Below are positions 13,727-54,355 of a stretch of 64,000 nt of DNA, piece after piece. Within the stretch, counting starts at the first letter, position 1. Every line of letters begins with the position of its first letter. A model generated the notes under the pieces. It saw only the letters and a program-made list of their open reading frames with translations. It was not told the origin of the DNA and searched no databases. Origin of the DNA: Escherichia coli (lineage in GTDB: Bacteria; Pseudomonadota; Gammaproteobacteria; Enterobacterales; Enterobacteriaceae); assembly GCF_013122565.1 (NCBI RefSeq), contig NZ_CP053258.1; one strand, 5' to 3'. A program made the position numbers and the translations under genes.

Positions 13727-13758
13727 ACGTTGTTTTAACTATAGAAATGTCAATTAAT

Positions 13759-14592: not shown

Positions 14593-14706
14593 TTACGCCA
14601 ATGTGTAATTTGGCCCATTCTCATCGTTATTCGCCCATTTGCCCACATGCACAGTACGGGCTGCACGCTACGCTAATGACATCAATACTGTGATGTGGAG
14701 CAAATC

Positions 14707-15483: not shown

Positions 15484-15502
15484 TTCGGAGATAAAGAGTG
15501 TT

Positions 15503-16456: not shown

Positions 16457-16650
16457 TAGCGCGTGCAGGAAAGTCAATTCAGGTTCCCCACTAACCAACT
16501 GAATTGTGGGAAGATTGCTTTATCAGGCTTAATACAAGCCATTCGGTAACAGTTTTTCTCGCTCCCGCCCTGTCACTCCTGTTGATTGTGCAATGTTACA
16601 AAAATGCTTCATTTTTGTTGATTTTCTACTGTGATCAATTCGGCAATATC

Positions 16651-36546: not shown

Positions 36547-36579
36547 TGGGTACGTTTCCTTATTGTTATTCGTAGAGGT

Positions 36580-37749
36580 TTACTGGCGCTTATCCAGCGC
36601 GACAAACTGGCGGTCTTCCGGTCCAACATAATTGGCGGAAGGACGGATAATTTTGTTGTCCTGACGTTGTTCAATGATGTGTGCCGCCCAGCCGGTGACG
36701 CGGGCGATAACAAACAGTGGGGTGAACATCTCGGTGGGAACGCCCATCATGTTGTAGGAAACAGCAGAGAACCAGTCGAGATTGGGGAACATCTTTTTAC
36801 TCTCCCACATCACCGTTTCCAGGCGATCGGCGATGTTGTACATCTTCAGCGAACCGCCTTCCTGCGAGAGCTGCTTCGCCACGCGTTTGATCACCTGATG
36901 ACGCGGGTCGGCGATGGTGTAAACCGGATGACCAAAACCAATGACCACTTCTTTGTTTTCCACGCGCTTGCGGATATCTGCTTCGGCTTCGTCCGGCGTT
37001 TCGTAGCGTTGTTGGATCTCCAGCGACACTTCATTCGCCCCGCCGTGTTTCGGCCCGCGCAGTGCGCCAATCGCGCCAATAATCGCGGAATACATATCAG
37101 AGCCAGTGCCCGCAATCACCCGACTGGTAAAGGTGGAAGCGTTAAACTCGTGTTCGGCGTACAGCACCAGCGAAATATGCATCGCCTTTTCCCAGCTTTG
37201 CGACGGCTTTTCGCCATGCAGCAGATGCAGGAAGTGACCGCCGATGGAGTCGTCATCGGTTTCCGGCTGGATACGTTCGCCGTTATGGCTGTAGTGATAC
37301 CAATAAAGGAGAATCGAGCTAAGTGATGCCAGCAGTTTGTCGGCAATATCCCGCGCGCCAGAGACGGTATGTCCCTCTTTTTCTGGCAGCGTGCAGCCGA
37401 GCGCGGAAACGCCGGTGCGCATAACATCCATCGGGTGCGACGCCGCCGGTAAGGCTTCCAGCACGGTACGCACGTTAGCCGGTAAACCGCGCAGGGCTTT
37501 CAGTTTCGTTTTGTAGGCGGCGAGTTCGTCACGGGTCGGCAGTTTGCCGTGGATCAGCAGATGCGCCACTTCTTCAAATTCGCAATGTTCCGCCAGATCA
37601 AGAATGTCGTAGCCGCGGTAATGCAAGTCATTGCCGCTTTTACCCACGGTGCAGAGCGCCGTATTGCCCGCCGGAACGCCGGAAAGTGCTACCGATTTTT
37701 TCGGTTTAATGACATGGGTACTGTTTTGCAGGATCGTTGTGTCGCTCAT
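36580..37749 (-). CDS. prpC: 2-methylcitrate synthase
   Basis: 389 aa from [33 protein letters not shown]; citrate synthase family; track ORF extends upstream through REP sequence. Confidence 0.9.
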
Positions 37750-37789
37750 GTTGTCCTCGTCATTGTTATCATTTGTAGGGTCGAGATTG

Positions 37790-37885
37790 TTGTCGGATGC
37801 GACGCTATGCGTCTTATCCGACAGTTCAGTGCATCCCGTAGGCCTGATAAGTCGCGTCAGCGGCGCATCAGGCATCGGTTATCGA
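37790..37885. repeat. REP/BIME cluster in prpB-prpC spacer
   Basis: gtcggatgcgacgctatgcgtcttatccgac ... gcctgataagtcgcgtcagcggcgcatcaggc palindromic units. Confidence 0.8.
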
Positions 37886-37906
37886 ATACAACCAACGGGC
37901 GTTTTT

Positions 37907-38797
37907 TTATTTCGCCTGGCTACGGGCAAACAGGTCGTCGAGCTTCTCTTCGTACTGGTAGTAGTTGATGCTTTCGTACAGCTCGTTGCGGGTTTGCATG
38001 GTGTCGATGACACTTTTCTGCGTGCCTTCCTGACGCAGGACGTTGTAGACATGTTCAGCGGCGCGGTTCATGGCACGGAACGCTGAAAGCGGGTACAGCG
38101 CCATTGCGACATGGGCGCTGCGTAATTCGTCGGTGGTAAACAGCGGTGTTGCGCCAAATTCGGTAATATTGGCGAGGATCGGCACCTGCACCGCATCGGC
38201 AAACTGGCGGTACATGGCGAGTTCGGTAATTGCTTCCGGGAACAACATCTCGGCACCCGCTTCAACATAGGCCTGCGCACGCTCAATCGCCGCATCCAGT
38301 CCTTCAACCGCCAGCGCATCGGTGCGCGCCATGATCACAAAATCAGGATCGGTTTTCGCATCCACCGCCGCACGGATCCGATCCACCATTTCCTCTTTCG
38401 AGACGATCGCTTTGTTCGGACGATGACCGCAGCGTTTCGCGCCAACCTGATCTTCAATATGCAATCCTGCCGCACCGGCTTTAATCATCGATTTCACGGT
38501 ACGCGCCACGTTAAAGGCCGAAGAACCAAAACCGATATCCGCATCCACCAGCAGCGGCAGCGAACAAACGTCGGTGATACGGCGAATATCAGTCAGCACA
38601 TCATCAAGAGTAGAAATACCGAGATCGGGCAGCCCCAGCGACCCTGCCGCCACGCCACCGCCGGAAAGATAAATTGCCTGATATCCGGCACGCTGCGCCA
38701 ACAGCGCATGGTTGGCGTTAATGGTGCCAACAATCTGCAATGGATTTTCTTTAGTCAGTGCAGCGCGAAACGCTTTACCTGGAGAGTGTAGAGACAT
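37907..38797 (-). CDS. prpB: 2-methylisocitrate lyase
   Basis: 296 aa PEP-mutase/isocitrate lyase superfamily. Confidence 0.93.
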
Positions 38798-38844
38798 AGC
38801 CCATCCTTTGTTATCAACTTGTTATTTTCGTTGATAAAGACAAA

Positions 38845-38859
38845 GCAAGGGGTGTGCCA
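38845..38859 (-). promoter_or_regulatory. Sigma54 (-24/-12) promoter of prpBCDE
   Basis: Minus-strand TGGCACaccccTTGC matches the TGGCAC-N5-TTGC consensus about 50 bp upstream of prpB; adjacent prpR encodes a sigma54 enhancer-binding protein. Confidence 0.7.
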
Positions 38860-39035
38860 CAATTGCCTTAATAAAATTAAATCTTTAATTTCAATTTGTT
38901 AGAGATAAAGTCATGAACTAATCCGCAAATATGCGTTTCAGTTAACGTTTCAGGCAATGTTTCACCGCGTTTCATTGCAACAATTATGAAACAAGACTAA
39001 ACCCAATATTCGGTTTCTTAACTTTGCGGTGCGCT

Positions 39036-40622
39036 ATGGCACATCCACCACGGCTTAATGACGACAAACCGGTTATCTGGACGGTATCTGTAACGCGCCT
39101 GTTCGAGCTGTTTCGCGATATCAGCCTCGAGTTTGATCACCTGGCGAACATTACCCCTATTCAGCTTGGCTTTGAAAAAGCAGTGACCTATATCCGCAAG
39201 AAACTGGCAAACGAACGCTGCGACGCCATCATCGCTGCTGGCTCTAACGGCGCGTACCTGAAAAGCCGCCTGTCAGTGCCAGTTATTTTGATTAAACCGA
39301 GCGGCTACGATGTGTTACAGGCACTGGCAAAAGCCGGAAAGCTCACCTCTTCTATCGGCGTTGTCACTTATCAGGAAACTATTCCGGCACTGGTGGCGTT
39401 TCAAAAAACCTTTAACTTGCGCCTCGATCAACGTAGCTACATTACCGAGGAAGACGCACGCGGGCAGATTAACGAGCTGAAAGCTAACGGCACCGAAGCG
39501 GTGGTCGGCGCGGGGCTGATTACCGATCTGGCAGAAGAAGCCGGAATGACCGGAATTTTTATCTATTCCGCCGCCACCGTGCGCCAGGCATTCAGCGATG
39601 CGCTGGATATGACGCGCATGTCGTTACGCCATAACACTCACGATGCCACCCGCAACGCCCTGCGTACTCGTTACGTGCTGGGCGATATGCTCGGTCAATC
39701 ACCACAGATGGAACAGGTGCGGCAGACTATTTTGCTGTATGCCCGCTCCAGTGCAGCGGTGTTGATTGAGGGGGAAACGGGGACGGGCAAAGAGCTGGCG
39801 GCCCAGGCGATTCATCGGGAATATTTTGCCCGCCACGATGCGCGACAGGGCAAAAAGTCGCATCCGTTTGTTGCCGTCAACTGCGGGGCGATTGCCGAAT
39901 CGCTGCTGGAAGCAGAGCTGTTTGGCTATGAGGAAGGGGCGTTCACCGGCTCGCGACGCGGAGGTCGCGCCGGGCTGTTCGAAATTGCCCACGGCGGTAC
40001 GCTGTTTCTGGATGAGATTGGCGAAATGCCGCTACCTTTGCAGACTCGCCTGTTACGGGTGCTGGAAGAAAAAGAGGTCACCCGCGTCGGCGGGCATCAG
40101 CCTGTTCCGGTAGATGTACGGGTCATTAGCGCCACTCACTGCAATCTGGAAGAAGATATGCAGCAAGGACGTTTTCGCCGTGATCTGTTTTATCGGCTGA
40201 GTATTTTGCGTCTGCAATTGCCACCACTCCGCGAGCGGGTGGCGGATATTCTGCCGCTGGCGGAAAGCTTTTTGAAAGTGTCTCTGGCGGCGCTCTCCGC
40301 CCCGTTTTCTGCCGCATTACGCCAGGGATTACAGGCAAGCGAAACCGTGCTGATGCACTACGACTGGCCGGGCAATATTCGTGAACTGCGCAATATGATG
40401 GAGCGACTGGCGCTGTTTTTAAGTGTGGAACCGACGCCGGATTTAACGCCGCAATTTTTGCAATTGCTACTGCCGGAACTGGCGCGCGAGTCGGCGAAAA
40501 TTCCCGCTCCACGCTTACTGACACCACAACAGGCACTGGAGAAATTTAATGGCGATAAAACAGCAGCGGCGAATTATTTAGGTATCAGCCGGACGACGTT
40601 CTGGCGGCGGCTGAAAAGCTGA
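39036..40622 (+). CDS. prpR: Sigma54-dependent activator of the prp operon
   Basis: 528 aa from [15 protein letters not shown]; AAA+ GETGTGKE Walker A and GAFTGS motif; C-terminal HTH. Confidence 0.92.
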
Positions 40623-40660
40623 ACTGCCGAATGCAGCGCGAACGCTTTATCCGGCATAAA
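40623..40660. repeat. REP-like palindromic unit between prpR and yahO
   Basis: gccgaatgcagcgcgaacgctttatccggca resembles REP consensus. Confidence 0.4.
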
Positions 40661-40722
40661 TTTCAATAGATGATGATCGCCGATAAACTTACGCATCGGG
40701 CATGTTTATATAGGGTTCAGAA

Positions 40723-40998
40723 TTACTTCTTCTTATAAATATCCGCCGTGCCGTGGATCTTATTGTCAGTTTGACCAGAGGTCAGCACCAACACATCAGC
40801 CCCTTTTTCATCGGCTTTTTTGATTAAATCTTCTTTTGCATCTGCAGTCGACATTTCATTACTGGTTGAAATATCACCTATTTTTTCATACTGCGATGCA
40901 ACTTTTTCAAATTCCGCTTTGGTCATCAATTCAGCGGCATAGACATTGGCAACGGCAAACGCTAACGCACCGACTAACATTTTAGAGATTATTTTCAT
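40723..40998 (-). CDS. yahO: Periplasmic DUF1471-family small protein
   Basis: 91 aa with N-terminal signal peptide [21 protein letters not shown]. Confidence 0.85.
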
Positions 40999-41144
40999 AT
41001 TACGGCTCCAGAGTTGTTATCACACTATCACCCACCCACATTATTGGGTTGATTAATAATTAGTTCAGTCAGGGCATAAACGCCAGTAACCGGAAATAAG
41101 ACACTTTGTGATCTCTCTCGCACCCGATTAGTTTTGGTAGAAAT

Positions 41145-41816
41145 ATGATGAAGTTAGTTCACTTATTTATGGATGAAATCACTATGGATCCTTTGCACGC
41201 CGTTTACCTGACCGTAGGACTGTTCGTGATTACTTTTTTTAATCCGGGAGCCAATCTCTTTGTGGTAGTACAAACCAGCCTGGCTTCCGGTCGACGCGCA
41301 GGGGTGCTGACCGGGCTGGGCGTGGCGCTGGGCGATGCATTTTATTCCGGGTTGGGTTTGTTTGGTCTTGCAACACTAATTACGCAGTGTGAGGAGATTT
41401 TTTCGCTTATCAGAATCGTCGGCGGCGCTTATCTCTTATGGTTTGCGTGGTGCAGCATGCGCCGCCAGTCAACACCGCAAATGAGCACACTACAACAACC
41501 GATTAACGCACCCTGGTATGTCTTTTTTCGCCGCGGATTAATTACCGATCTCTCTAACCCGCAAACCGTTTTATTTTTTATCAGTATTTTCTCAGTAACA
41601 TTAAATGCCGAAACACCAACATGGGCTCGTTTAATGGCCTGGGCGGGGATTGTGCTCGCATCAATTATCTGGCGAGTCTTTCTTAGTCAGGCGTTTTCTT
41701 TGCCCGCTGTGCGTCGTGCTTATGGGCGTATGCAACGCGTTGCCAGTCGGGTTATTGGTGCAATTATTGGTGTATTCGCGCTACGCCTGATTTACGAAGG
41801 GGTGACCCAGCGGTGA
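41145..41816 (+). CDS. yahN: LysE/RhtB-family amino-acid exporter
   Basis: 223 aa, 6-TM LysE-type membrane protein. Confidence 0.85.
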   Translation: MMKLVHLFMDEITMDPLHAVYLTVGLFVITFFNPGANLFVVVQTSLASGRRAGVLTGLGVALGDAFYSGLGLFGLATLITQCEEIFSLIRIVGGAYLLWFAWCSMRRQSTPQMSTLQQPINAPWYVFFRRGLITDLSNPQTVLFFISIFSVTLNAETPTWARLMAWAGIVLASIIWRVFLSQAFSLPAVRRAYGRMQRVASRVIGAIIGVFALRLIYEGVTQR

Positions 41817-41832
41817 GCAGATAATTTACTCT

Positions 41833-42078
41833 CTACGTAATCAACCTGATTTGCCGAATCCCGACCATCGGCGATGATAGCCCCCGTAATGCGTGGTCCT
41901 TATTTCCGATAAGTTTACTTGAGTCTTTAGCTTCCCATTTCAGCCCACTCTCCCCTGTGTGGGCTTTTTTCATTGGTCTGACCCGTCCTGAATAGCCAAA
42001 CAATGGCAATGTTCCACTTTGCAGGGATGATAATAAGGGGATCTGATTCAGAAGAGTTTTGAAAAGTTGGACCGCCAT
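41833..42078 (-). CDS. yahM: Small uncharacterized ORF at the K-12 yahM position
   Basis: 81-aa ORF from MAVQLFKTLLNQ; assigned only by length and synteny; contains a hairpin plus T-run on the opposite strand, so coding status uncertain. Confidence 0.35.
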   Translation of the reverse strand: MAVQLFKTLLNQIPLLSSLQSGTLPLFGYSGRVRPMKKAHTGESGLKWEAKDSSKLIGNKDHALRGLSSPMVGIRQIRLIT

Positions 42079-42490
42079 CGAGGCCTCGAACCCCGTACCA
42101 TACAACAATCCTGGTTGTCGTCTGCTCTTCCTGATGAGCTAATGGCGGTTTTTGATATGAGCCTTACAGCATATTTTCTGTCAGGCTTGAGTGCGATGCG
42201 TAAGATACAGAAAAGACCCCACACAAACATGATGGAATTATGATTTTTTTCATATGAATGTCAACCCACACATTCACAAAACATCTGCATAAGATCATTT
42301 TTTATACCCCGCATGGCTGCGAAACCACTGCTGGTGCTTTTTTAAGCGAATTGTCGCCGATCACAACAAAATATCGGCGAAAAAAGAGATGGAATGCCAG
42401 TTAGCATACAGATATACAGATGAAATGATTACCTGCATTGCGATTCACTCTCTGGTGGAATAACAACTTGCAGGTGGAACCCTTTCTGAA

Positions 42491-43306
42491 CTAAAGAGTG
42501 TAGCGGATTTTAACGTGCTTATTTACAGGATAATATCTGTCACCTAATTCCTGCACTCTATTAGATATCCATTCATTTAATCGTGCGTCATCTCTGTATG
42601 TTTTTACGTCCAGAACAGAGAGCAATAACATCACCAGTGATTCAGGAAAAACAGGGTAGATATTTTTTAAGTGTAATAATAATCCATGCGCAAGCGCCTG
42701 CTTAATGGGCGCGTCTGTCTCCGGAATAGACGACATTTCGCGAAGCCATTTTTCCACATGCATACACTCTTTCCCTTTAGGGAAAAGTCTCAGCAAAGGC
42801 ATATGGTGTTCAAGAAGAATACATTTGCAATCTGTTCGCACTGAATCGATAAACTGCACTAATTTCTTAAGCCCGGTAAAGCGTCCAGCCTGCACGTTTG
42901 CTTTAATATCAAGAAACGCATCATCCTGGTCATATACCCAAACTGTCCCTTTTTGATTTTCAAGTATGCGAAAAACAAACTTAACCGGGTGATCAGGGTA
43001 ATCCATCCAGTCATAAAATCCAGGGAAATCATTAAACTGCACATTTATGGTGAGTGCGTTATCGTCTGACCACTCACAGTCTCGTACGGCAGCCATGAGA
43101 TGAATGAGTTTGTCGTCATCGACTAAATCATCACGACAATCATAAGGATAATCATAATATTGTTTAATCAAAACCTTGAATATATCGACACAGGAAACCA
43201 GGGAGCTTTTGATATCCTCTGGTAACTGATTGTTTTTAACCGTATTAAGTATGCTTTGTTGCGTGTATGGCATCAAATTATTGTGCGGAGCTTTTAATGA
43301 TATCAT
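42491..43306 (-). CDS. yahL: Uncharacterized protein YahL
   Basis: 271 aa, AT-rich gene with no recognisable domain; K-12 synteny and length match. Confidence 0.75.
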   Translation of the reverse strand: MISLKAPHNNLMPYTQQSILNTVKNNQLPEDIKSSLVSCVDIFKVLIKQYYDYPYDCRDDLVDDDKLIHLMAAVRDCEWSDDNALTINVQFNDFPGFYDWMDYPDHPVKFVFRILENQKGTVWVYDQDDAFLDIKANVQAGRFTGLKKLVQFIDSVRTDCKCILLEHHMPLLRLFPKGKECMHVEKWLREMSSIPETDAPIKQALAHGLLLHLKNIYPVFPESLVMLLLSVLDVKTYRDDARLNEWISNRVQELGDRYYPVNKHVKIRYTL

Positions 43307-43475
43307 CGCGATCTCTCTTAAATAAAAATAAACGTCGCAGATAATAAAGCTCTGATTAAACCAGGCACTATCAGAAATCGCTCATAACTAACGTATGAAG
43401 TATTGTGTACTGGAGGGAGTTAATTTAACAATTTGAATTTACGTTATAGGTTTTACCACTACTTTGATATTATTT

Positions 43476-43509
43476 CGCTCTCCTTAACTAAAAAGTTAAG
43501 TGGAGAGCG
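43476..43509. other. Long hairpin (cgctctccttaact aaaa agttaagtggagagcg) downstream of yahK
   Basis: 14-bp stem with one mismatch in AT-rich spacer between yahK stop and yahL start. Confidence 0.4.
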
Positions 43510-43548
43510 AAGTTAATATGTTAAACCACCGGGTATTTATTAATTTTT

Positions 43549-44598
43549 TCAGTCTGTTAGTGTGCGATTATCGATAACAAAACGATATTTCACATCACCA
43601 CGCAGCATTCGCTCATAGGCTTCATTAATTTGATCGGCCCGAATCATCTCTATATCAGCCACGATGCCATGTTCGGCGCAAAAATCGAGCATCTCCTGTG
43701 TTTCTGGAATGCCGCCAATCATAGAACCGGCTATCGCACGGCGTTTCATGATCAGGTTGAAAACTTCCGGCGATTTATGCGGTGTCGCAGGCGCACCAAC
43801 CAGCGTCATGGTGCCATCGCGCTTCAGCAAGGTGGTAAAATCGTCGAGATTATGTGGCGCAGCTACTGTATTCAAAATGAAATCGAAACTCTTCAGATGA
43901 GCCGCCATCTCATCGGCATTGCGTGAGTTAACAACTTCATCGGCCCCCAGGGCTTTTACCGCTTCGCGTTTTGACTCAGAAGTGGTAAATGCCACCACAT
44001 GTGCCCCCATCGCGTGGGCCAGCTTAATCCCCATATGTCCCAGACCGCCGATGCCGACCACGCCCACTTTTTTACCCGGCCCGGCCTGCCAGTGACGTAG
44101 CGGCGAATACGTGGTGATCCCTGCACACAACAAAGGAGCCACCGCCGCCAGCTGCTCTTGCGGGTGACGAATACGCAGAACATATCGCTCATGTACGACG
44201 ATCTGTTGTGAGTAGCCGCCCAGAGTATGGCCCGGTTCGTCCGGCGTCGGCGAGTTATAGGTGCCGGTCATGTGATCACAGTAGTTTTCCAGCCCGTCTT
44301 CACACTCTTCGCAATGTTTACAACTGTCGACAATGCAGCCGACACCGACCAGATCGCCCGGCGCATGTTTTTCAACCTGATCACCAACGGCTACCACACG
44401 CCCCACAATTTCATGACCCGGTACGCAGGGGTAAACCGTCCCCGCCCACTCGGAACGGACCTGGTGGAGATCGGAATGGCAGACGCCACAGTAAGCGATT
44501 TCGATTTTGACATCATGCGGTCCCGGTTCACGCCGGGTGATATCCATCGGTTCAAGTGGTTGTTTAGCGGAATATGCACCAATAGCCTTGATATTCAT
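43549..44598 (-). CDS. yahK: Zn-dependent NADPH aldehyde reductase (cinnamyl-alcohol dehydrogenase-like)
   Basis: 349 aa from MNIKAIGAYSAKQPLEPMD; GHE..G and CxxC..C zinc motifs; GxGxxG. Confidence 0.9.
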   Translation of the reverse strand: MNIKAIGAYSAKQPLEPMDITRREPGPHDVKIEIAYCGVCHSDLHQVRSEWAGTVYPCVPGHEIVGRVVAVGDQVEKHAPGDLVGVGCIVDSCKHCEECEDGLENYCDHMTGTYNSPTPDEPGHTLGGYSQQIVVHERYVLRIRHPQEQLAAVAPLLCAGITTYSPLRHWQAGPGKKVGVVGIGGLGHMGIKLAHAMGAHVVAFTTSESKREAVKALGADEVVNSRNADEMAAHLKSFDFILNTVAAPHNLDDFTTLLKRDGTMTLVGAPATPHKSPEVFNLIMKRRAIAGSMIGGIPETQEMLDFCAEHGIVADIEMIRADQINEAYERMLRGDVKYRFVIDNRTLTD

Positions 44599-44869
44599 TG
44601 CATTCACTCCTGTTCGAAGAGGTATCTGGATGATGTGAGGAACGTCTTTGCAGCAAAACTCGCTCATTCAATATAGCCAATGAATGGTTGCCCGTGATGG
44701 GCTCTGAGACGTCGATACCGGAGAGTTTAATGACCAATAGTGGTGTCGTTTTTCGTGGCAGATCACACTTTCTGGCACCAGCGATATCCCTTTTCCACCT
44801 TAAAACCGGGGCGATATCGTGACTGGCGAATTAGACTGGCGTGAAATTCAATTATTACGCACACGCCGT

Positions 44870-45517
44870 TTACCCCGCAAAAGAAACACGCAATAACTTT
44901 AACTGCCCGTTAATAATGCCAAATTCCAGTATAGTTGTGCCATCACAAACAGCCGGTGGAATTTGTTCATTAGCCTGCGAGCCAATATTCAGCGTAATGC
45001 CATCGTCAGAAATATTCCCCGACATCGCCAGTTCACATATTCCCGTGACGTAGTGGCGCTCCCCTTTCTCTTCGTAATAGAAACGTCCATCATTGAGGGG
45101 ATAATATTTTCTTTTTTGCTCCGCTGGCGTCAGCGAATGACTGAGATAATCATCAATCCATTGGGTACCCGGATGTATCGTGAATTTTGTGACATTATGC
45201 AGACGCCGCATAATGGTTTCTGAATGGCGATCAAATAGTGCTTCTGTGAAGGGTTCAGATTCAGGAAACTCAATCTCAGCGAGAAAGCCGAAATAGGTAT
45301 CGTAGGGGAATTTTAAGAAGGTTTTTAGTTTCGTGGCATTCTTTGCACTCAGCGCTTGCTGAAACTTTTGCAATTGCGTTAAGGCATCTTTTTTCTGCTC
45401 TGGCGTGACCAGGGGCTGTATGCGCACCGCCTCGCATTCGTGTTGTGAATTTCCAGCAGGGCAAGTTGCCAGGACGGCCTGACTCAGAAACAACAGCGAT
45501 AACCAAAGAAATCTCAC
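44870..45517 (-). CDS. Hypothetical secreted protein (signal peptide, four Cys), no recognisable domain
   Basis: 215-aa ORF starting MRFLWLSLLFLSQAVLATCPAG (signal-peptide-like); AT-rich codon usage distinct from flanking yahK and yahJ. Confidence 0.55.
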   Translation of the reverse strand: MRFLWLSLLFLSQAVLATCPAGNSQHECEAVRIQPLVTPEQKKDALTQLQKFQQALSAKNATKLKTFLKFPYDTYFGFLAEIEFPESEPFTEALFDRHSETIMRRLHNVTKFTIHPGTQWIDDYLSHSLTPAEQKRKYYPLNDGRFYYEEKGERHYVTGICELAMSGNISDDGITLNIGSQANEQIPPAVCDGTTILEFGIINGQLKLLRVSFAG

Positions 45518-45636
45518 GGAGTCTATCCATCCCTGGATAAAAAAGATAATCCGCAGTGTACGTCATGGGCAAAACGCAGAGGATATCGGGTTTTAAAATC
45601 GGAATAGTGCCTGCCCGGATATCCTCGCTGATAACG

Positions 45637-47016
45637 TTACACCACACTCCCCCACACCAGTTGTCCTTTATGGAACGTTGCCGTTCTCGGCGAGATACGC
45701 GCCACCGCCTCGGCGGAACAGGAGGCGTCCACCAGCACAAAGCTGGCGTCATCCTGTGCTTTCGGCCAGACGCGCTCGCCTTTTTCATTCAGCGGCAATA
45801 CATCACCAGTGGCTAAAAACAGCGAGCGGGAGAGGTTCTGTTCGTTAGGACGAATATAGAGCTGCGCGTAGAGATTGGCTTTTTCCAGCATGTCGCCCAG
45901 GCCGTAAGGCGACCAGTGGTCAATAACGCTGTCAGTTCCGGTCATGACTTTTACGCCTTTGTCGTGCAACTGTTTGAGCGGCATATGCAGCGTGCCAATC
46001 GGCACCGTCGAGGCGATAGAAATTTGCTGCGCCGCCATCCGGTGCGCCAGCGCATCGACCTGTTGTTCGTTGAGCGTTGCCAGCGCAAAGGCGTGGCTGA
46101 TGGTCAGCTTACCTTTCAGTTGCGGCGTTTTCTCTACCGTTTCAACCATATAATTGATGGCTGCCACGCCTGCCGGAGTGGTTTCGTGCATGTGAATATC
46201 GACGCCTTTGTCATAGTCAAGGGCAATCTGGAACATGGTGTCGAGGGATTTTTCCATCGCGCCATCGACATTGGTCGGGTCCAGCCCGCCGACGTAATGC
46301 GCGCCCGCCTGCATTGCTTCACGCATTAAGGGTTCCGATTTCGACAGCAGCAAACCGTGCTGCGGGAAGGCGACAATTTCACACTCGAAGCCCGCCTGAC
46401 GTCGCGCCAGCACCGCCTGCAAATTTTGCAGATTTTTCAGGCCGGAAACCGGTTCGATATTGCAGTGGCTGCGGGCAATGGTGGTGCCTTTCGACTGCAA
46501 TAAATCGATCAGTTTTTCCGCCCGTTCCTGCGTGTACGGTTGCAGCTCCGGCAGCATTTTCTGCTCGAGCTTAATCATGTCCTGGATGGTGGTGCCTGCC
46601 GGACGATTGAGCGAGCGCCACGGCCCGCCGTAAAAGGTTTTGTCGAGATGAATATGCATGTCGCGGGTGGTGGGCAGCATCAGCTTACCGCCAGCGTCAT
46701 AGTGCGGCAGCGTGGCGTCCGGATGCTGATTGTTCTCGCGCAGTGCAACAATTTTGCCGTTCTGAATCTCCACGGTCTGGCGCGCCGTGCGGGTCTGCAC
46801 CGCCACGCCATTTTCGTAGTCAAATCCAGTTTCCAGCAGCACGTTGTCGAGATAGTAATGCGGGTCAGTGATTTTCATGGTGTTGTTCGCTTCGCAGTTT
46901 GTGGTGCCAGCTACCGCCGCATGGGCGAGCGGCACAGAGGTACCAAACAGCGCGGCGGCGGTGACCATCTTACCGCTCTGGCTCAGAAATTCACGGCGGC
47001 TATTGTTTTCTTTCAT
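45637..47016 (-). CDS. yahJ: Amidohydrolase-family deaminase with Tat signal
   Basis: 459 aa; twin-arginine motif SRREFL near N-terminus; metal-dependent hydrolase HxH motif. Confidence 0.88.
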   Translation of the reverse strand: MKENNSRREFLSQSGKMVTAAALFGTSVPLAHAAVAGTTNCEANNTMKITDPHYYLDNVLLETGFDYENGVAVQTRTARQTVEIQNGKIVALRENNQHPDATLPHYDAGGKLMLPTTRDMHIHLDKTFYGGPWRSLNRPAGTTIQDMIKLEQKMLPELQPYTQERAEKLIDLLQSKGTTIARSHCNIEPVSGLKNLQNLQAVLARRQAGFECEIVAFPQHGLLLSKSEPLMREAMQAGAHYVGGLDPTNVDGAMEKSLDTMFQIALDYDKGVDIHMHETTPAGVAAINYMVETVEKTPQLKGKLTISHAFALATLNEQQVDALAHRMAAQQISIASTVPIGTLHMPLKQLHDKGVKVMTGTDSVIDHWSPYGLGDMLEKANLYAQLYIRPNEQNLSRSLFLATGDVLPLNEKGERVWPKAQDDASFVLVDASCSAEAVARISPRTATFHKGQLVWGSVV

Positions 47017-47025
47017 CTTACGTCC

Positions 47026-47976
47026 TTACGTTTTAATAATATGGGTGCCCGTTTCACCGCGCAGCGCCGCAGGCAGGCATTCCGGCGTGGTGATAATCAC
47101 TTCTTTGCCGCCCTGTTCCAGGAACGTCAGGCTGGCGATGATTTTTGGCAACATGCTGCCAGGCGGAAAATGCCCTTCCTGCATATAGCGGGTCATGGTG
47201 GCAATATCCACCCGATCGAGCGCCTGCTGCTGCGGTTTACCAAAATGAATACACACTTTTTCCACGCCAGTGGTGATCACCAGAATGTCGGCGTGAATTT
47301 CACGGGCCAGCAGCGCGGTAGAGAGATCTTTGTCGATAACCGCGTCCACGCTTTGGTAATCCCCCGCTTCAGTACGCACTACCGGAATTCCACCGCCGCC
47401 CGCGCCAATTACGACAAAACCTTGTTGGATCAGCGCTTTAATGGCAGGTGCTTCGACAATACGTTTCGGTTCCGGCGAGGCGACCACGCGGCGATAGCCC
47501 CGCCCGGCATCTTCAACAAAACACCAGTCAGGGTTTGCCTTTTGTAATTCGTCACGCTGGCTGTCACTAAAGAATGCGCCGATGGGCTTGGTGGGATGGG
47601 CAAATCCCGGATCGTTTTTATCCACTTCCACCTGAGTCACCACGGTGACGGCTTTTTTCTCGCCGTGGCGCGCCAGCCGGTTGTTCAGCGCCTGCTGGAT
47701 CAGATAGCCAATGCCACCTTGCGTATCCGCCACACAGTTTGCCAGCGGCGTTAAGGGCAGCCCTTCGCGCTCGTGGGCAATCTCCGCACGGCGTAAATCC
47801 AGCCCGACCTGCGGCCCGTTGCCGTGGGTCAGCACAATGTCGTAATCGGAAGCCAGCATTTCCAGCACCGTATCGGCCACGGCTTTCACCGCCTCCGCCT
47901 GATGCTCAATCGACTGGCTGGCGTTATCTTTGATAATGCTGTTGCCACCAATGGCAACGACCACAAGCTCTTTCAT
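47026..47976 (-). CDS. yahI: Carbamate kinase-like protein
   Basis: 316 aa from MKELVVVAIGGNSI (amino-acid kinase family); track ORF extends 39 codons upstream. Confidence 0.88.
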   Translation of the reverse strand: MKELVVVAIGGNSIIKDNASQSIEHQAEAVKAVADTVLEMLASDYDIVLTHGNGPQVGLDLRRAEIAHEREGLPLTPLANCVADTQGGIGYLIQQALNNRLARHGEKKAVTVVTQVEVDKNDPGFAHPTKPIGAFFSDSQRDELQKANPDWCFVEDAGRGYRRVVASPEPKRIVEAPAIKALIQQGFVVIGAGGGGIPVVRTEAGDYQSVDAVIDKDLSTALLAREIHADILVITTGVEKVCIHFGKPQQQALDRVDIATMTRYMQEGHFPPGSMLPKIIASLTFLEQGGKEVIITTPECLPAALRGETGTHIIKT

Positions 47977-48071
47977 AATTTTATGTCCGCTACAGAGGGT
48001 GATGAGGTTATGAGAGTGAGGTTGCCCCTCTCCCCAGAAGGAAGAAGGGATCGTAAGGTGCAGTTGGAGGG

Positions 48072-49490
48072 TCAGACGCCGTAACGTTCGCACCAGCCAA
48101 GAATGGCTTTCTCGAAGCAGGCGAATGGCGGATGCACAATGCCCGCGCCAATCATGCCGACGCCCGCATCTTTATGGGCGATGGCGGTGTTGATCACCGG
48201 CAGAATGCCGCTGCTACCCACGCGGGTGATGTCGATTGCCGACGGCACGCCCATAAAACCGAGCAGCGGAATGGTGACGTTGGGGTTTTCACCGAGGGTG
48301 ATTTCGCGCATCTGACGGGAGAAATCGATAGCCTCTTCCACCGTACCGCCCACCAGCGCGACGATAGCGGGCGCGGTCGCCATAGCAAATCCGCCAATAC
48401 CGTAGGTTTCGGTGATGGCGCTATCGCCGATATCCAGCCCCGAATCTTCCGGCTTATAACCGGCAAACATCGGCCCGATCACCTGCTGCGCCGGGCCGGT
48501 AAACCATTGCCCCGGCAGGCCGCTGACTCGCAGGCCAAACTCGACGCCGTTACGTGCCATCGTGGTCACCACGGTGCTGTATTCGATGCCGTGCGCCGCA
48601 TCCATCGCCGCTTTACACATCGCCATCCACGTCGGGCCGGAGAAGTAGTCGCTGCTGGCGACAAACTCAAATACTTCGCGCTGTTGCTCCACGGAATAAC
48701 CTGCCTGAATAATCCCCGGCGTCAGCGCCTGAATCAGCAGCGTCGTCCCGGCGTTATTGCGGTTATGGCATTCATCGCCCATATGCAGCGCCTGCGCCAG
48801 CATTAAGCGCAGATCGATCTCGCCGATAATTTTCATCGCGTCGCGCAGCATTGGTCCCTGCACATCGCGCATCCAGTTCAGGCGGTCAATCACGCTCTGG
48901 TCGTTAGCGCCCATACGCAAAATCTTCGCCATCTGCTCGCTCATATTGGTATAAGCGATGTTGCCGTAGGTTTTGTTTTTCACGATGTGCATAAACATCG
49001 AGGCCGAGGTAACGCCCGCCATCGATCCCACGCAGTCGTGTTCGTGGCACGGCGAGAAGGTGATCTCCCCGGAGGCCGCCAGTTCAGCCGCCTCGTCGAG
49101 ATCTTTCGCCAGCCCTTCGAACACCAGCGCCCCGGTGACCGCGCCTTTCATCGCGCCGCACATTTTTTCCCAGGTAACCGGCGGCCCGGCGTGAAGAATG
49201 GTTTTCGGCGTCATGCCCGGCACCACGTTAATCGCCTGATCAAAACCAATCAGCACCGGATGCGACTGGATAATGCGCTCCAGCGCCTGCTGGTTAGCGG
49301 CGGCGATTTTGTCTGCCAGCGGCGAATCGGTAATGTTATCCAGCGCCTGCACCACCTGCATATTGCCCTGCCCCGGCGGCGTCCAGTCGAGTTGGGTCAC
49401 TTCTACGTGCTGCTTTTTCAGGTCATCGCTAAACATGGCGATGCCGACGTTAATAACGTTCAACGGTTGGCTAAACAGTGACTGGCTCAT
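48072..49490 (-). CDS. yahG: DUF1116-family protein (YlbE-like)
   Basis: 472 aa; length and synteny match K-12 yahG. Confidence 0.85.
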   Translation of the reverse strand: MSQSLFSQPLNVINVGIAMFSDDLKKQHVEVTQLDWTPPGQGNMQVVQALDNITDSPLADKIAAANQQALERIIQSHPVLIGFDQAINVVPGMTPKTILHAGPPVTWEKMCGAMKGAVTGALVFEGLAKDLDEAAELAASGEITFSPCHEHDCVGSMAGVTSASMFMHIVKNKTYGNIAYTNMSEQMAKILRMGANDQSVIDRLNWMRDVQGPMLRDAMKIIGEIDLRLMLAQALHMGDECHNRNNAGTTLLIQALTPGIIQAGYSVEQQREVFEFVASSDYFSGPTWMAMCKAAMDAAHGIEYSTVVTTMARNGVEFGLRVSGLPGQWFTGPAQQVIGPMFAGYKPEDSGLDIGDSAITETYGIGGFAMATAPAIVALVGGTVEEAIDFSRQMREITLGENPNVTIPLLGFMGVPSAIDITRVGSSGILPVINTAIAHKDAGVGMIGAGIVHPPFACFEKAILGWCERYGV

Positions 49491-51037
49491 CAGGCTTCCT
49501 CCCCTTTGCAGATAAATTCACGCGCCAGCAATCCGGTATTGGTGCTGCTGCTCGCCAGAATCACTCCGGCATCAAGCAGCATCTGGCTTTGTTGTTCTAA
49601 CGATGGCGTATCAAGATCGGTACCCAGCACATAGGCGAGAATGATCAACTCGCGTCCTTCGGCAGCGGCGATCGCTTTCGCTTCTTTGATCGCCTCGATG
49701 GTGGAGCCGACCGGATCTTCATGCGATCCAAATCCGAGCACAAAATCCATCACGATCACCGCCACTTCTGGATCGCGCGCCTCTTCGATCAAGCGACTGA
49801 TGCGGTTGGTGGGGTCAATCATTGGATGCGGCTTGCTGTTGGTGAAGTCGTCATCGCCAAAGTCGAGGAAGGTGTGTTTGATGCTGCGGTTGATATCTTT
49901 CAGGCGGAATTCCGGATCGGGCTGGATATTGCTGTAGACATCGCCATGTTTTTCCATCACCGCGAACATGATTTCGTCACACAGCGTGCCGCCGCAGAAC
50001 AGGCCACGAATGTATTTCTGCTGCGGTTGCAGACGCGCACGCACATCCGCAATCAACGGCTGGTTAAGCGTATGCAGGTCGAGATGTTCTTGTTTCACGC
50101 CGGAGAGCATCACCGCTTTTAGCGCCGCTTCTTTGCTGCCACGAGCAAACTGTAGACCCTGCTCATCCACCGGCGTTTCACCGCGACCGAGGAAACAGAC
50201 CACCACCGGCTTGCGGCAGGCACGTGCGCGTTCCAGCACTTTGCGGGCCACCGCAGGCGCGGGAGGTTTTGAAATCAGCGCGATAATTTCAGTTTGCGGA
50301 TCGTTTTCCAGCATCCCGATGGCGTCAAGCATCATCAGGCCGCCGATTTTCTCGCTCAGGTCGCGCCCGCCGGTGCCAATCAGTTGTGAAACGCCGCCAC
50401 CAAATTCATGAATGCGGACGCTCAGCTCCTGGCTGCCGGTGCCGGATGCGCCAACAATACCGATGTTGCCGCGACGCACGGCGTTACCAAAACAGAGCGC
50501 CGCGCCGTTGATAATCGCCGTGCCACAGTCTGGCCCCATCATCAGCAGCCCTTTTTCGTGGGCCAGTTGCTTGAGCGCCAGTTCATCTTCAACTGAGACG
50601 TTATCGGAAAACAGCATCACGTTGAGATCGTTTTGCAGCGCCTGACGCGCTTCGCGAGCAGCAAACAGACCGTTGACCGAAATCACCGCCAGGTTACTTT
50701 CCGGGATATGCTTTTTGGCGCTGGCAATAGTGGCGTAACGCGCCTCGTGCGAGCCGCTTTGCGCTTTGGTGTTGAACAGTTCTTCAATCTCCACCAGCAA
50801 CTGCTCGTTGTCCGCACCCGATTTACCATTGATGACAATCATCAGGTCGCCGTTTTTCGCCTGTTCCAGCTCCGGCGTCAGCAGCCCTAAATTCTTCAGC
50901 ACGCCTTTGTTCATTTCGGTCGCCATCGCCACAAATGCCTGCTCGACGCCGTCGAGTTTATTTGCACGCGTGGAGATAGACATCAGCGAGACAGAATCAA
51001 AATAGGTATTCGGTTTAATGACTATTTTAACTGACAT
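49490..51037 (-). CDS. yahF: FdrA-like protein (succinyl-CoA synthetase alpha-like CoA-binding fold)
   Basis: 515 aa; overlaps yahG start and yahE end, indicating an operon. Confidence 0.85.
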   Translation of the reverse strand: MSVKIVIKPNTYFDSVSLMSISTRANKLDGVEQAFVAMATEMNKGVLKNLGLLTPELEQAKNGDLMIVINGKSGADNEQLLVEIEELFNTKAQSGSHEARYATIASAKKHIPESNLAVISVNGLFAAREARQALQNDLNVMLFSDNVSVEDELALKQLAHEKGLLMMGPDCGTAIINGAALCFGNAVRRGNIGIVGASGTGSQELSVRIHEFGGGVSQLIGTGGRDLSEKIGGLMMLDAIGMLENDPQTEIIALISKPPAPAVARKVLERARACRKPVVVCFLGRGETPVDEQGLQFARGSKEAALKAVMLSGVKQEHLDLHTLNQPLIADVRARLQPQQKYIRGLFCGGTLCDEIMFAVMEKHGDVYSNIQPDPEFRLKDINRSIKHTFLDFGDDDFTNSKPHPMIDPTNRISRLIEEARDPEVAVIVMDFVLGFGSHEDPVGSTIEAIKEAKAIAAAEGRELIILAYVLGTDLDTPSLEQQSQMLLDAGVILASSSTNTGLLAREFICKGEEA

Positions 51038-51890
51038 AATTCCCTCCGTAGGTTTGGCTCAGCGCACAACCATCGGCCATGCCATACAGCATGTCGCAGC
51101 CGGAACTGGAGCCAATATGTTTAATTTTTTCTATTGCCTGAGTTGCGTTCCCAGGAATGTCATAAATAATGTTGTGAATAAAACGATGAATATTTTCCCG
51201 GCAGCGTTGTTGTAATGCGGCTTCGAGCGTTATGGCACTTAATAATGTGGTATTATTTCTGCCGCGTTGCAGACCGAGATAAAATTCCTCTTTGTATTTT
51301 TCCGCCGGATGTCCGGAAATAAATAAAATAAGTACCAGTCCGGTCAGATAATCATCGGCTGATGGCGTAAGCCCAATCCCTAATCCCATCATATTAGCTA
51401 CCGCTGAGGCGATATTTTGTTTTTCGTTTACGGCCTGAATAACTGCTTGTCGTTTAATATGTAATTCTTTATTTAACGCCTGATAAAACGGATTATCGCC
51501 GCGATAATTAAACAGGGTTTCATTTTCCCCCAGGTGCTGATGAATAATGTCGTGCCACTGTTGCCAGGCGATAAGGTGAAAATTCACAGCGGTCATTTGC
51601 AAGGTTGGGGACAGCCAACGCTGGCAATGACTCATCTCTATATGAAGATGTTGACCAACCGTAATGCCTTGATCGTCAAACTGAACCTTATCACCATGCC
51701 GGAACAGACCATCAAAGTGAGTGAGTGCCAACCGACAACTGTTTGGCGCATTGTCGTACTCTTCACAAAGCAGCGTTAGCAACTGCTGGCGAGCCGGGAG
51801 TGCGATATTTACCGCTCTGGCAAAGACCTGTTCAACCTGTCCTTGCCCCCGCTGCGCCAGAAAATCAGCATCCGCAGTTAGCGCCCACAC
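51027..51890 (-). CDS. yahE: Uncharacterized protein YahE (DUF2877-like)
   Basis: 287 aa; synteny. Confidence 0.8.
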   Translation of the reverse strand: MWALTADADFLAQRGQGQVEQVFARAVNIALPARQQLLTLLCEEYDNAPNSCRLALTHFDGLFRHGDKVQFDDQGITVGQHLHIEMSHCQRWLSPTLQMTAVNFHLIAWQQWHDIIHQHLGENETLFNYRGDNPFYQALNKELHIKRQAVIQAVNEKQNIASAVANMMGLGIGLTPSADDYLTGLVLILFISGHPAEKYKEEFYLGLQRGRNNTTLLSAITLEAALQQRCRENIHRFIHNIIYDIPGNATQAIEKIKHIGSSSGCDMLYGMADGCALSQTYGGNYVS

Positions 51891-51929
51891 ACACCGTCTT
51901 TCTGGTGTGTTGATAGCAAGCCTCCCGGT

Positions 51930-52535
51930 TTATGCGCCTGCGGCAATCAGTAACTGCGCAATCTCTTCAAAGCCCCGTTCTCGCGCCAGTTCCAGCGGTG
52001 TTTTGCCATATTTATCGGTCAGATGCGGGCTGGCACCGTGTTCCAGCAATAACTGGACAATCGCCTGCTGTTTAATCCCGCCATCATTAAGCACAATCGC
52101 TTCCAGTAGCGGCGTCCAGCCAACATGGTTGGTCTGGTTAACGTTAATATCGGTGTGCGCCAAAAGCTCTTTTACAATACTTAAATGGCCTTTTTCACAG
52201 GCAGGCGTCAGGCCGACACCGCCAAAACGGGTTACGCAATTAAGATCGGGTTTAGCCGGTAAAATAATTCGTAGTAGCGTTAAATCATCGTACAGACAGC
52301 TAATTAAAAAAGGATTTAAACAGGTATGATCTTGTTTATTAATATCCGCTCCGGCATCAATTAATGCCTGAACGCAAGCATATTGCTGATATAAACTTGC
52401 CAGCGTAATTGCCGTTTTCCCGTGGCGATCGCAGGTATTAATATCGACACCCAGCGCAAGGCAGGTTTTTACTTTATCGATATCACCCTGTTGCGCAGCC
52501 AATAAATAGTCGGCAGGTAGATTTTTTATAGTCAT
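51930..52535 (-). CDS. yahD: Ankyrin-repeat protein
   Basis: 201 aa with tandem ankyrin repeats (GKTAITLA, GWTPLLEA, GKTPLELA). Confidence 0.85.
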   Translation of the reverse strand: MTIKNLPADYLLAAQQGDIDKVKTCLALGVDINTCDRHGKTAITLASLYQQYACVQALIDAGADINKQDHTCLNPFLISCLYDDLTLLRIILPAKPDLNCVTRFGGVGLTPACEKGHLSIVKELLAHTDINVNQTNHVGWTPLLEAIVLNDGGIKQQAIVQLLLEHGASPHLTDKYGKTPLELARERGFEEIAQLLIAAGA

Positions 52536-52792
52536 TCACATTCCCCTGGTTTTTGTGGCTGTTTTCGATGAATTGAGAATAGCAACGATAATCTGATAAA
52601 AGAACCCGCTTAAATTTAATTCGCCGTATTTCGCCTTTTTGTTGAATGATGTTCAACAATCTTTTCGCAGTGTGCGGTAGTGCAATATTTGTTTCTTTGA
52701 CCCGATACCCTTTCACTCAATCAGGTTTTATTTCTCTATAGTCTGCACATGTAAGAGTAGCTTTCGTCCATGTCTAACCAGAGGGGAACAAG

Positions 52793-53290
52793 ATGAACGG
52801 ACTCACGGCAACGGGTGTCACCGTCGGTATTTGTGCAGGGCTTTGGCAGTTAGTGTCTTCACATGTCGGGCTCTCTCAGGGATGGGAATTATTAGGAACC
52901 ATTGGCTTCGTCGCCTTTTGCAGTTTTTATGCCGCAGGCGGCGGTAAATCGGGGTTTATCAGAAGTCTGGCGGTTAATTATTCCGGGATGGTGTGGGCAT
53001 TTTTCGCCGCGCTGGCTGCCGGTTGGCTGGCCTCGGTGAGTGGGATTTCTGGGTTCTGGGCCAGCGTGATGACTACCGTGCCTTTCTCAGCGGTAGTGGT
53101 CTGGCAAGGGCGTTTCTGGTTACTGTCTTTTATTCCCGGAGGCTTTCTCGGCATGACGCTATTTTTTGCCAGCGGGATGAACTGGACGGTGACATTACTG
53201 GGTTTTCTGGCGGGTAACTGCGTGGGGATAATTTCAGAATATGGTGGGCAAAAATTAAGCGAAGCGACGACTAAACGCGACGGGTATTAA
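52793..53290 (+). CDS. yahC: Small inner-membrane protein
   Basis: 165 aa, 4-5 hydrophobic segments. Confidence 0.8.
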   Translation: MNGLTATGVTVGICAGLWQLVSSHVGLSQGWELLGTIGFVAFCSFYAAGGGKSGFIRSLAVNYSGMVWAFFAALAAGWLASVSGISGFWASVMTTVPFSAVVVWQGRFWLLSFIPGGFLGMTLFFASGMNWTVTLLGFLAGNCVGIISEYGGQKLSEATTKRDGY

Positions 53291-53381
53291 AAGTTATTCA
53301 AAAATGATTACCCATCTTTAATTGATACCTCTACAGTTATGCCTGGAGAAAATTAAAGTAGAAAATGGCGGGAATGGTTTA

Positions 53382-54314
53382 ATGAACTCAATTTTTACCG
53401 AAGAGAATCTGTTGGCATTTACTACCGCTGCGCGTTTTGGCAGCTTCAGTAAAGCCGCAGAAGAGTTGGGTTTAACCACTTCCGCCATTAGCTACACCAT
53501 TAAGCGTATGGAGACGGGGCTGGATGTGGTGCTGTTCACTCGCAGTACCCGCAGCATTGAGTTAACGGAGTCCGGGCGTTATTTTTTCCGCAAAGCTACC
53601 GACCTGCTGAATGATTTTTATGCCATCAAACGTAGCATAGATACTATTTCGCAGGGCATAGAAGCGCGTGTGCGCATTTGTATTAATCAGCTGCTTTATA
53701 CGCCCAAACACACCGCACGCTTATTGCAGGTACTGAAAAAGCAGTTTCCTACCTGCCAGATTACCGTCACCACCGAAGTGTATAATGGCGTCTGGGATGC
53801 GATTATTAATAATCAGGCGAATATCGCTATCGGCGCACCCGACACGCTGCTGGACGGTGGCGGTATTGATTACACTGAAATTGGCGCGATTCGCTGGGCT
53901 TTTGCTATCGCCCCGGATCACCCGTTAGCCTTTGTGCCGGAACCCATCGCCGAAAGCCAACTGCGTCTCTATCCTAATATCATGGTGGAGGACACCGCGC
54001 ATACGATTAATAAAAAAGTGGGCTGGTTGCTGCATGGGCAGGAGTCAATTCTGGTGCCAGATTTCAACACCAAATGTCAGTGCCAGATTTTAGGTGAAGG
54101 AATTGGTTTTTTGCCGGATTACATGGTCCGTGAGGCGATGGCGCAATCCCTGCTGGTTACCCGACAAATCCATAATCCACGCCAGGATTCACGCATGTTG
54201 CTGGCGACCCAGCATTCAGCAACGGGTCAGGTGACGCAGTGGATTAAAAAACAATTTGCGCCAAATGGCATATTAACGGGGATCTATCAGGATTTACTGC
54301 ATCGGGAGAATTAA
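53382..54314 (+). CDS. yahB: LysR-family transcriptional regulator
   Basis: 310 aa from MNSIFTEENLLAFTTAARFGSFSKAAEELGLTTSAISYTIKRME (LysR HTH). Confidence 0.85.
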   Translation: MNSIFTEENLLAFTTAARFGSFSKAAEELGLTTSAISYTIKRMETGLDVVLFTRSTRSIELTESGRYFFRKATDLLNDFYAIKRSIDTISQGIEARVRICINQLLYTPKHTARLLQVLKKQFPTCQITVTTEVYNGVWDAIINNQANIAIGAPDTLLDGGGIDYTEIGAIRWAFAIAPDHPLAFVPEPIAESQLRLYPNIMVEDTAHTINKKVGWLLHGQESILVPDFNTKCQCQILGEGIGFLPDYMVREAMAQSLLVTRQIHNPRQDSRMLLATQHSATGQVTQWIKKQFAPNGILTGIYQDLLHREN

Positions 54315-54355
54315 TCGCTGCCAACCTCCCGATGCGCTGTGAATAGCGGTTTACA

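Follow-up and report, generated by a model that had tools for sequence, protein, structure and literature searches.

Within a 64,000-nucleotide window of the Escherichia coli contig NZ_CP053258.1 (RefSeq assembly GCF_013122565.1), the spacer between the genes yahK and yahJ carries an open reading frame (ORF) for a 215-residue protein, which is the subject of this report. On balance, we favour the reading that this is a horizontally acquired gene for an exported, NTF2-like periplasmic binding module, and that the block of DNA holding it arrived by replacement of resident sequence and was then passed on by recombination. The coding sequence and the parts of its product lie in the window as follows.

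44870..45517, minus strand: coding sequence of the 215-residue, predicted exported protein, with a GTG start at 45517-45515 and the stop codon at 44872-44870 (ORF list and RefSeq)
45467..45517, minus strand: predicted Sec-type signal peptide, residues 1-17 (MRFLWLSLLFLSQAVLA), with the signal peptidase I cut before T18 (rule-based inspection)
45413..45466, minus strand: linker, residues 18-35 (TCPAGNSQHECEAVRIQP), with C19 and C28 (alignment with the closest relative, P0003, and multiple alignments)
44873..45412, minus strand: conserved unnamed domain, residues 36-215, with a predicted NTF2-like alpha+beta fold and the conserved C161/C191 pair

The ORF amounts to more than an open frame that arose by chance, because homologues of 22-42% identity occur in other genera and an alignment-based AlphaFold model of its product is confident. 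It is a real, rare accessory gene of E. coli, already catalogued as hypothetical and with no function assigned in databases. RefSeq annotates the identical coding sequence in E. coli 042 (EC042_RS01915, WP_000670937.1, "hypothetical protein") and in other carriers, the UniProt entry for the 042 protein is D3GTB5 ("Exported protein"), and the allele of the window is an exact match to QJU25353.1/WP_171459766.1. The protein is, therefore, not as unrecognised as a first-pass annotation of the window, made from its letters, had supposed. Some database entries call shorter products; the GTG start is backed by a residue-for-residue N-terminal alignment with P0003, a relative of Citrobacter gillenii type. 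A literature search with DUF4431, D3GTB5/WP_000670937 and the combination of yahJ, yahK and 042 found no publications.

Much else in that annotation holds. It had placed a 215-residue ORF at 44870-45517 between yahK and yahJ, coordinates and a length that the ORF list and RefSeq confirm, and the four cysteines that it counted are C19, C28, C161 and C191. The GC content of the ORF (0.447-0.467) is, as it had noted, below that of its neighbours (0.51-0.60 in yahK, 0.53-0.58 in yahJ), and its failure to recognise a motif is matched by searches of Pfam, NCBIfam, PHROG, PADLOC and PDB sequences, none of which returned a match. The ORF runs in the same direction as both flanks, 119 nt below the yahJ stop and 271 nt above the yahK start.

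Export signal, domain family and fold

Inspection of the N-terminus (MRFLWLSLLFLSQAVLA followed by TC) points to a Sec-type signal peptide, in agreement with the signal-peptide-like start, and the small periplasmic or exported product, that had been proposed from the sequence. R2 forms the n-region, the hydrophobic core (residues 3-17) has a mean Kyte-Doolittle hydropathy of 2.0, and V at position -3 and A at position -1 precede T18 (AVLA/T). Residues 3-21 are the sole hydrophobic 19-mer of the protein, with no further transmembrane segment, and by these rules the product is predicted to be a Sec-exported periplasmic protein cleaved by signal peptidase I. A bacterial lipobox follows the rule L-[AS]-[GAS]-C and closes the signal peptide (PROSITE PS51257). 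The window protein lacks a lipobox, since it reads L-A-T-C, with T instead of G, A or S before C19, and the TIGR04454 lipoprotein model scores 14.4 bits, below its cutoff of 35.

The relatives of this protein are distant. A word-indexed search of 5.8 billion proteins retrieved the E. coli cluster alone, and the more distant relatives needed an exhaustive phmmer search of 1.84 billion cluster representatives, which gave 20 matches. A search with the family profile returned 36 clusters, the E. coli cluster being retrieved at E = 2.9e-57. The relatives P0003-P0011 match query residues ~30-215 in phmmer with E-values of 1e-35 to 1e-13, a domain similarity that places the window protein in their family. 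Members were found in the Enterobacterales (Citrobacter, Lelliottia, Phytobacter, Kosakonia (partial), Hafnia, Serratia, Pseudocitrobacter, Siccibacter, Affinibrenneria and Salmonella Albany) and, among the Fusobacteriota, in Sebaldella. A scan of 100,044 species-representative genomes, with four Enterobacterales sequences as query, detected no relative in any representative of the other Escherichia species.

Two architectures occur in this family. In the Enterobacterales relatives, exported proteins of 307-659 amino acids, the shared domain is the C-terminal half, and the N-terminal parts match DUF4431 and, in one case, also DUF4459 and YARHG; in Sebaldella-type contigs, nothing but a signal peptide accompanies the domain, which is present there as five tandem paralogs. 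No Pfam model covers the shared domain of ~180 residues.

The closest relative, P0003 (317 amino acids), aligns with the window protein in two collinear pieces: query residues 1-34 with P0003 residues 1-34 (50% identity, E = 4e-8), the signal peptide region itself also being 50% identical, and query residues 36-215 with P0003 residues 132-317 (39% identity, E = 3e-41). DUF4431 (PF14485) lies on P0003 at residues 78-126 (E = 2.1e-9), a stretch that is absent from the window protein. From this two-piece alignment and the position of DUF4431 we infer that the E. coli protein derives from a two-domain DUF4431 protein, having kept the signal peptide and lost the module. Residues 18-35 would then be what is left after that deletion; in the multiple alignment, C19 and C28 line up with two cysteines that are conserved in the DUF4431 module. 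PF14485 is matched by three of 17 aligned family members, and the window protein, with no Pfam match even at E <= 10, does not itself belong to DUF4431.

The C-terminal domain retains the character of its family. At 24 of the 36 family positions conserved at 75% or above it keeps the consensus residue, and the remaining differences are mostly conservative. Both C161 and C191 are present in 18 sequences, neither in 22, and in one the partner is displaced. On conservation and the cysteine pair alike, the window protein behaves as a member of this unnamed C-terminal domain family. The co-occurrence fits a structural disulfide, with the qualification that the "neither" group is a single clade, so that the statistic overstates independence.

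AlphaFold run on the single sequence gave an unusable model with a predicted local distance difference test (pLDDT) score of 40, and with a 41-sequence alignment it reached a pLDDT of 88.8 and a predicted template modelling score of 0.80. The model comprises helices at residues 39-57, 61-65, 74-80, 92-111 and 131-134, followed by six antiparallel strands, and the helices pack in a curved antiparallel sheet in the manner of solved NTF2-like proteins. Foldseek against the AlphaFold database (AFDB) places the protein's own family on top, followed by weak NTF2/DUF4440 matches; against the PDB, the matches are weak, of the same fold class and below significance (best E = 0.13). At the sequence level, no Pfam, NCBIfam or PDB-sequence match to the NTF2 clan (SnoaL, DUF4440 and others) was obtained, and a profile search of the PDB sequences yielded chance-level matches only. 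We read residues 36-215, at the level of the modelled fold only, as a divergent and enlarged member of the NTF2-like class.

Taken together, the pre-protein would lose its 17-residue Sec signal peptide to signal peptidase I and leave a soluble periplasmic protein of ~22 kDa with a predicted isoelectric point of ~5.7. This mature product would be essentially one domain (residues ~36-215), in which helices lie on a six-stranded antiparallel sheet to form an NTF2/SnoaL-like cone that a C161-C191 disulfide probably stabilises, and it would descend from a two-domain DUF4431 protein whose signal peptide it kept. Its likeliest mechanism would be that of a non-enzymatic periplasmic module that binds a small ligand, hydrophobic or derived from the envelope, or docks with a partner in the envelope. 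Such a binding or docking role is preferred because the protein is predicted to be exported, has a cone-shaped NTF2-like model and is fused, in its relatives, to extracytoplasmic non-catalytic modules; we propose it with low confidence.

The foreign block between yahJ and yahK

The yahJ-yahK gap measures 1,038 bp in the window (44599-45636), in accordance with the gap of roughly 1 kb noted previously; in the form most frequent in E. coli it is 376 bp. The block that fills it and its flanks are the following.

44599..45641, no strand assigned: putatively foreign block of ~1,040 bp (form C of the spacer), from the last two yahJ codons to the yahK start codon
45637..47016, minus strand: yahJ, amidohydrolase family, upstream flank (ORF list and RefSeq)
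43549..44598, minus strand: yahK, NADPH-dependent aldehyde reductase, downstream flank (ORF list and RefSeq)

Three forms of this spacer were distinguished among 5,426 complete E. coli genomes. Form A, an island of ~5.5 kb with an ASCH-domain gene and a four-gene sugar ATP-binding cassette (ABC) transporter, is present in 2,213 of them; form B, the 376-bp spacer, in 2,803; and form C, the block with the ORF, in 59 (1.1%). Around 350 genomes fit none of the three at 80% coverage or above. Form B contains a 75-bp "pseudogene" that RefSeq labels "hypothetical protein, missing N-terminus"; this is the last 24 codons plus stop of the ABC permease of the island, ending in …LALWGTLLLCFIQ[A/V]RGMLGLDRVV and the stop, and it sits just upstream of yahK. 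Form B is a deletion derivative, or scar, of the form A island, because of this permease C-terminal remnant and because its ends match form A. An origin of the common strains by deletion of the present ORF was rejected: the 75-bp remnant (LALWGTLLLCFIQARGMLGLDRVV, then the stop) is unrelated to the ORF, being the C-terminus of the permease. The common short spacer, presumably the form of K-12, carries no gene here, in line with the first-pass annotation, which knew of none at this position in K-12.

Form C has no homology to form A or B over 44682-45641. The 83 bp immediately upstream of yahK (44599-44681) are ~62% identical to forms A/B and 100% identical to the carrier M7424, and yahK itself is 96-100% identical to forms A/B, in 100-bp windows, up to its start codon. 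Import of a divergent yahK 5' end together with the block was, therefore, rejected, only the 83 bp upstream having been replaced. At the other junction, which lies within the final yahJ codons (45637-45645), the C-terminus of YahJ is altered, ending in …WGSVV (459 amino acids) instead of …WGSVAG (460 amino acids). The block has no terminal or flanking repeats at its ends and no mobility gene, Rfam match, significant PHROG match or second ORF with homologues, and nothing marks it as the cargo of an insertion sequence (IS), transposon, integron cassette or prophage.

This comparison suggests that the ~1,040-bp block replaced the ancestral ~5.5-kb island or its 376-bp remnant. The location given by the first-pass annotation, between yahK and yahJ, is right; the simple insertion that it described is not, as the block takes the place of an island or remnant with which it has no common sequence. 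A block of low GC content without mobility genes would have displaced the ABC-transporter island or its remnant by illegitimate recombination, and homologous recombination in its flanks would then have carried it into a few E. coli backgrounds.

Each of the 59 carriers has one chromosomal copy, 99.2% identical to that of the window, and the coding sequence is annotated as intact in all 59. Compared with seven sampled carriers over 41370-49017, the window differs in the block at 10 of 1,043 positions, and in the flanks at 56-60 of 1,380 (yahJ), 26-27 of 1,050 (yahK) and 16-36 of 951 (yahI). Among the seven carriers themselves, the block shows no differences and yahK and yahL are nearly identical (up to 6 nt in yahL, in strain A10), while yahJ differs by up to 48 nt and yahI by up to 38 nt. 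Because the carriers are alike in the block, yahK and yahL and unlike in yahJ and yahI, the pattern points to a cluster of recombination breakpoints at or near the junction of yahJ and the block. Given its low divergence relative to the flanks, and its identity among carriers whose yahJ and yahI differ, the block is younger than the core-gene diversity around it and appears to have moved between backgrounds, most simply via homologous recombination in the flanks.

The DNA of the block is probably foreign, because its GC content is low, it is found in 1.1% of genomes and in none of the other Escherichia representatives, and it is far less diverged than its flanks; these same features bear out the separate acquisition that had been suggested. 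The nearest homologue outside E. coli is ~40% identical, and hence the donor is unsampled. Allele comparison (counted by hand) gave three non-synonymous and two synonymous differences between the two alleles of the ORF, a number insufficient for a test of selection. In its left 16 kb (1-16483), the window is 99.1% identical to many E. coli strains, which marks the host as an ordinary E. coli; for the yah-prp region (36000-56000), the best match to any complete E. coli genome is 96.8% over 20 kb, the 500-bp bins spanning 92 to 99.6%, and the region is a mosaic of fine-scale recombination. In the carrier GF60, yahJ is annotated as frameshifted, and in the carrier F374, yahG is truncated by IS1203; the yah cluster appears to be dispensable in some carrier strains.

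The ORF is bordered by two non-coding spacers.

45518..45636, minus strand: 119-nt spacer from the yahJ stop to the ORF start (inverted repeat search)
44599..44869, minus strand: 271-nt spacer from the ORF stop to the yahK start, in whose last 83 nt a diverged sequence takes the place of the usual one upstream of yahK

The 119-nt spacer holds a 12-bp hairpin (45579-45590 / 45615-45626) and its fold does not surpass that of shuffled sequence (z = -1.1); neither a promoter nor a terminator consensus scored in it. A candidate ribosome-binding site is AGGGATGGA, rich in purines, which lies 9-17 nt before the GTG. In the 271-nt spacer, neither a terminator nor RNA structure beyond shuffled controls was predicted, and read-through from the ORF into yahK is possible. 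Weak promoter-like matches number three, all within the ORF, a count no higher than in shuffled sequence. The 83 bp that the block replaces are likely the 5' untranslated and promoter-proximal region of yahK, and the ORF has no predicted terminator behind it; the control of yahK in carriers may therefore differ, or its transcription may be shared with that of the ORF. The mechanically called yahK ORF (43549-44667) has 23 more codons (372 amino acids) than that from the annotated start (349 amino acids, MNIKAIGAYS…); the difference reflects just an ATG in frame further upstream, and no other gene.

Gene neighbourhoods and competing explanations

The neighbours of the family genes differ in every genus. 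Across six contexts (E. coli, Citrobacter-type, Hafnia, Serratia, Sebaldella and SRR31617754), no toxin, secretion-system or conserved partner gene was found beside a family member. A conserved downstream partner was considered and rejected: the membrane-like 126-residue ORF of the Citrobacter-type context and the 113-residue ORF of Hafnia are mutually unrelated and have no trace in the window. A Sebaldella-type metagenomic contig carries five divergent tandem paralogs of 205-217 amino acids, each with a signal peptide, flanked by a PhoH/PIN ATPase gene and a 196-residue ORF on the opposite strand. In Lelliottia wanjuensis, the 659-residue member (DUF4459, YARHG, DUF4431 and the shared domain) lies ~5 kb downstream of an ImpA_N/VasL gene of a type VI secretion system (T6SS). 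A separate 135-residue DUF4431-like ORF precedes it, as do MsyB and PerC genes, and a DUF3987 gene follows, in an island-like stretch; none of these neighbours is recognisable as a toxin or immunity gene.

This brings up the question as to whether the protein protects its host. It could act in the periplasm as an orphan immunity protein, or inhibit an envelope toxin or lytic enzyme that comes in from outside (T6SS or contact-dependent effectors, for instance), and would have been retained in the absence of a cognate toxin as a defence against competitors. NTF2-fold immunity families (Imm-NTF2) exist, the product is small, predicted to be periplasmic, accessory and patchily distributed, the tandem Sebaldella paralogs follow a pattern that is also that of immunity-gene arrays, and the Lelliottia relative is close to a T6SS gene and adjoins a DUF4431-like ORF. 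However, toxin-like and secretion-system neighbours are absent from the six contexts, the small downstream ORFs in two of them are unrelated to each other, PADLOC, PHROG and Pfam gave the window protein no defence, Imm-type or toxin/effector match, and the Lelliottia neighbours carry no toxin or immunity annotation, their region holding PerC and DUF3987 island genes. The effector- or immunity-type role proposed by the first-pass annotation is thus left with the proximity of the Lelliottia T6SS gene as its only hint, and we regard immunity as unlikely. A secreted effector or toxin is likewise unlikely: no domain matches, a Sec signal (rule-based) is the only export feature, and the neighbours are yahJ and yahK.

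The gene may instead be a non-functional relic, what is left of a decaying two-domain gene, carried along by a block that recombined recently. It has lost the DUF4431 module relative to its closest relatives, its rarity would suit such a fate, the ratio of three non-synonymous to two synonymous differences is compatible with neutrality, a scan for consensus promoters and terminators found none for it, and some database entries call shorter products. Yet the 215-codon frame is intact in both alleles and in every complete carrier, most family-conserved positions and both domain cysteines are kept, the standalone single-domain form is the normal architecture in Sebaldella, and the fold is predicted with high confidence; a relic seems to us quite improbable. 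An enzymatic role has its own appeal, as enzymes are numerous among the structural neighbours (SnoaL-like cyclases, ketosteroid isomerases, scytalone dehydratase, limonene epoxide hydrolase and bile-acid dehydratase) and a set of polar and aromatic residues is conserved in the family (Y124, R136, K137, Y138, Y147, Y148, D171 and N183). That the protein is a periplasmic NTF2-like isomerase, dehydratase, hydrolase or cyclase acting on a small molecule is, however, distinctly doubtful, and the acquired, exported binding module is the reading that we prefer.

A broader proposal concerns the family as a whole. The ~180-residue domain might define an undescribed extracytoplasmic NTF2-like family engaged in envelope defence or interbacterial competition, acting as an orphan immunity protein or inhibitor, or as a cell-wall or ligand sensor on DUF4431/YARHG modules. 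The first of these roles is suggested by the tandem Sebaldella paralogs and the one T6SS-proximal member; the proposal as a whole we think rather unlikely. If true, the yahJ-yahK spacer would be a three-state recombination hotspot that swaps an ABC transporter for this protein.

Significance and comparison with known protein families

The value of these results is modest: they supply structural and evolutionary context for a gene listed only as "hypothetical" or "exported protein", overturn nothing in current understanding and attach no phenotype to the gene. They delineate an unnamed domain family, of predicted exported proteins, that is common to the Enterobacterales and Sebaldella and is a candidate addition to domain databases. 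They also document the yahJ-yahK junction as a site with three alleles in E. coli (a 5.5-kb island, a deletion scar and a 1-kb block), which explains a RefSeq "pseudogene" in thousands of genomes, and present the block as one that recombination appears to have moved recently. Judged from the model, the gene appears to add a divergent member to a known fold class, in a family that is small and uncharacterised.

Three sets of proteins invite comparison. The nearest are the DUF4431 exported proteins, none of which has a known function, such as the Citrobacter gillenii A0ABD6M691/P0003 cluster (317 amino acids), Hafnia paralvei WP_061060012.1 (473 amino acids) and Lelliottia wanjuensis MDK9354799.1 (659 amino acids). 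With these, the window protein has in common the C-terminal domain of ~180 residues (34-40% identity, E-values of 1e-25 to 1e-41) and, with the closest of them, a near-identical signal peptide. The cysteine pair and the motifs QFxxFQxA, RKYY and NGKLKL are likewise common to both, with the variants FYY for YYY, and E for D after the first conserved cysteine, in the window protein. It differs from them in having no DUF4431 module and in a chromosomal site unlike that of every relative examined.

The standalone secreted proteins of Sebaldella (~200-215 amino acids; S. termitidis D1ARL2 and D1AJ80, and the P0095 cluster) have the same layout of a signal peptide and a single domain, and the profile search places them in the family of the window protein (E-values of 1e-43 to 1e-63). 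They are set apart by their identity of 22-31%, their tandem arrays of five paralogs and their different phylum, and, unlike the window protein, most of them have no cysteine pair (an RIWD…GDGG variant). Finally, the NTF2-like superfamily, represented here by SnoaL-like, DUF4440 and ketosteroid-isomerase-like proteins (PDB 3h3h, 2rcd and 3f7s) and by the NTF2 domains of the periplasmic LD-carboxypeptidases Pgp2 (6xj7) and Csd6 (4xzz), is at ~10% sequence identity. In contrast to its typical members, the domain of the window protein is ~50-60 residues larger, belongs to a protein predicted to be exported and carries a conserved, putatively disulfide-bonded cysteine pair.
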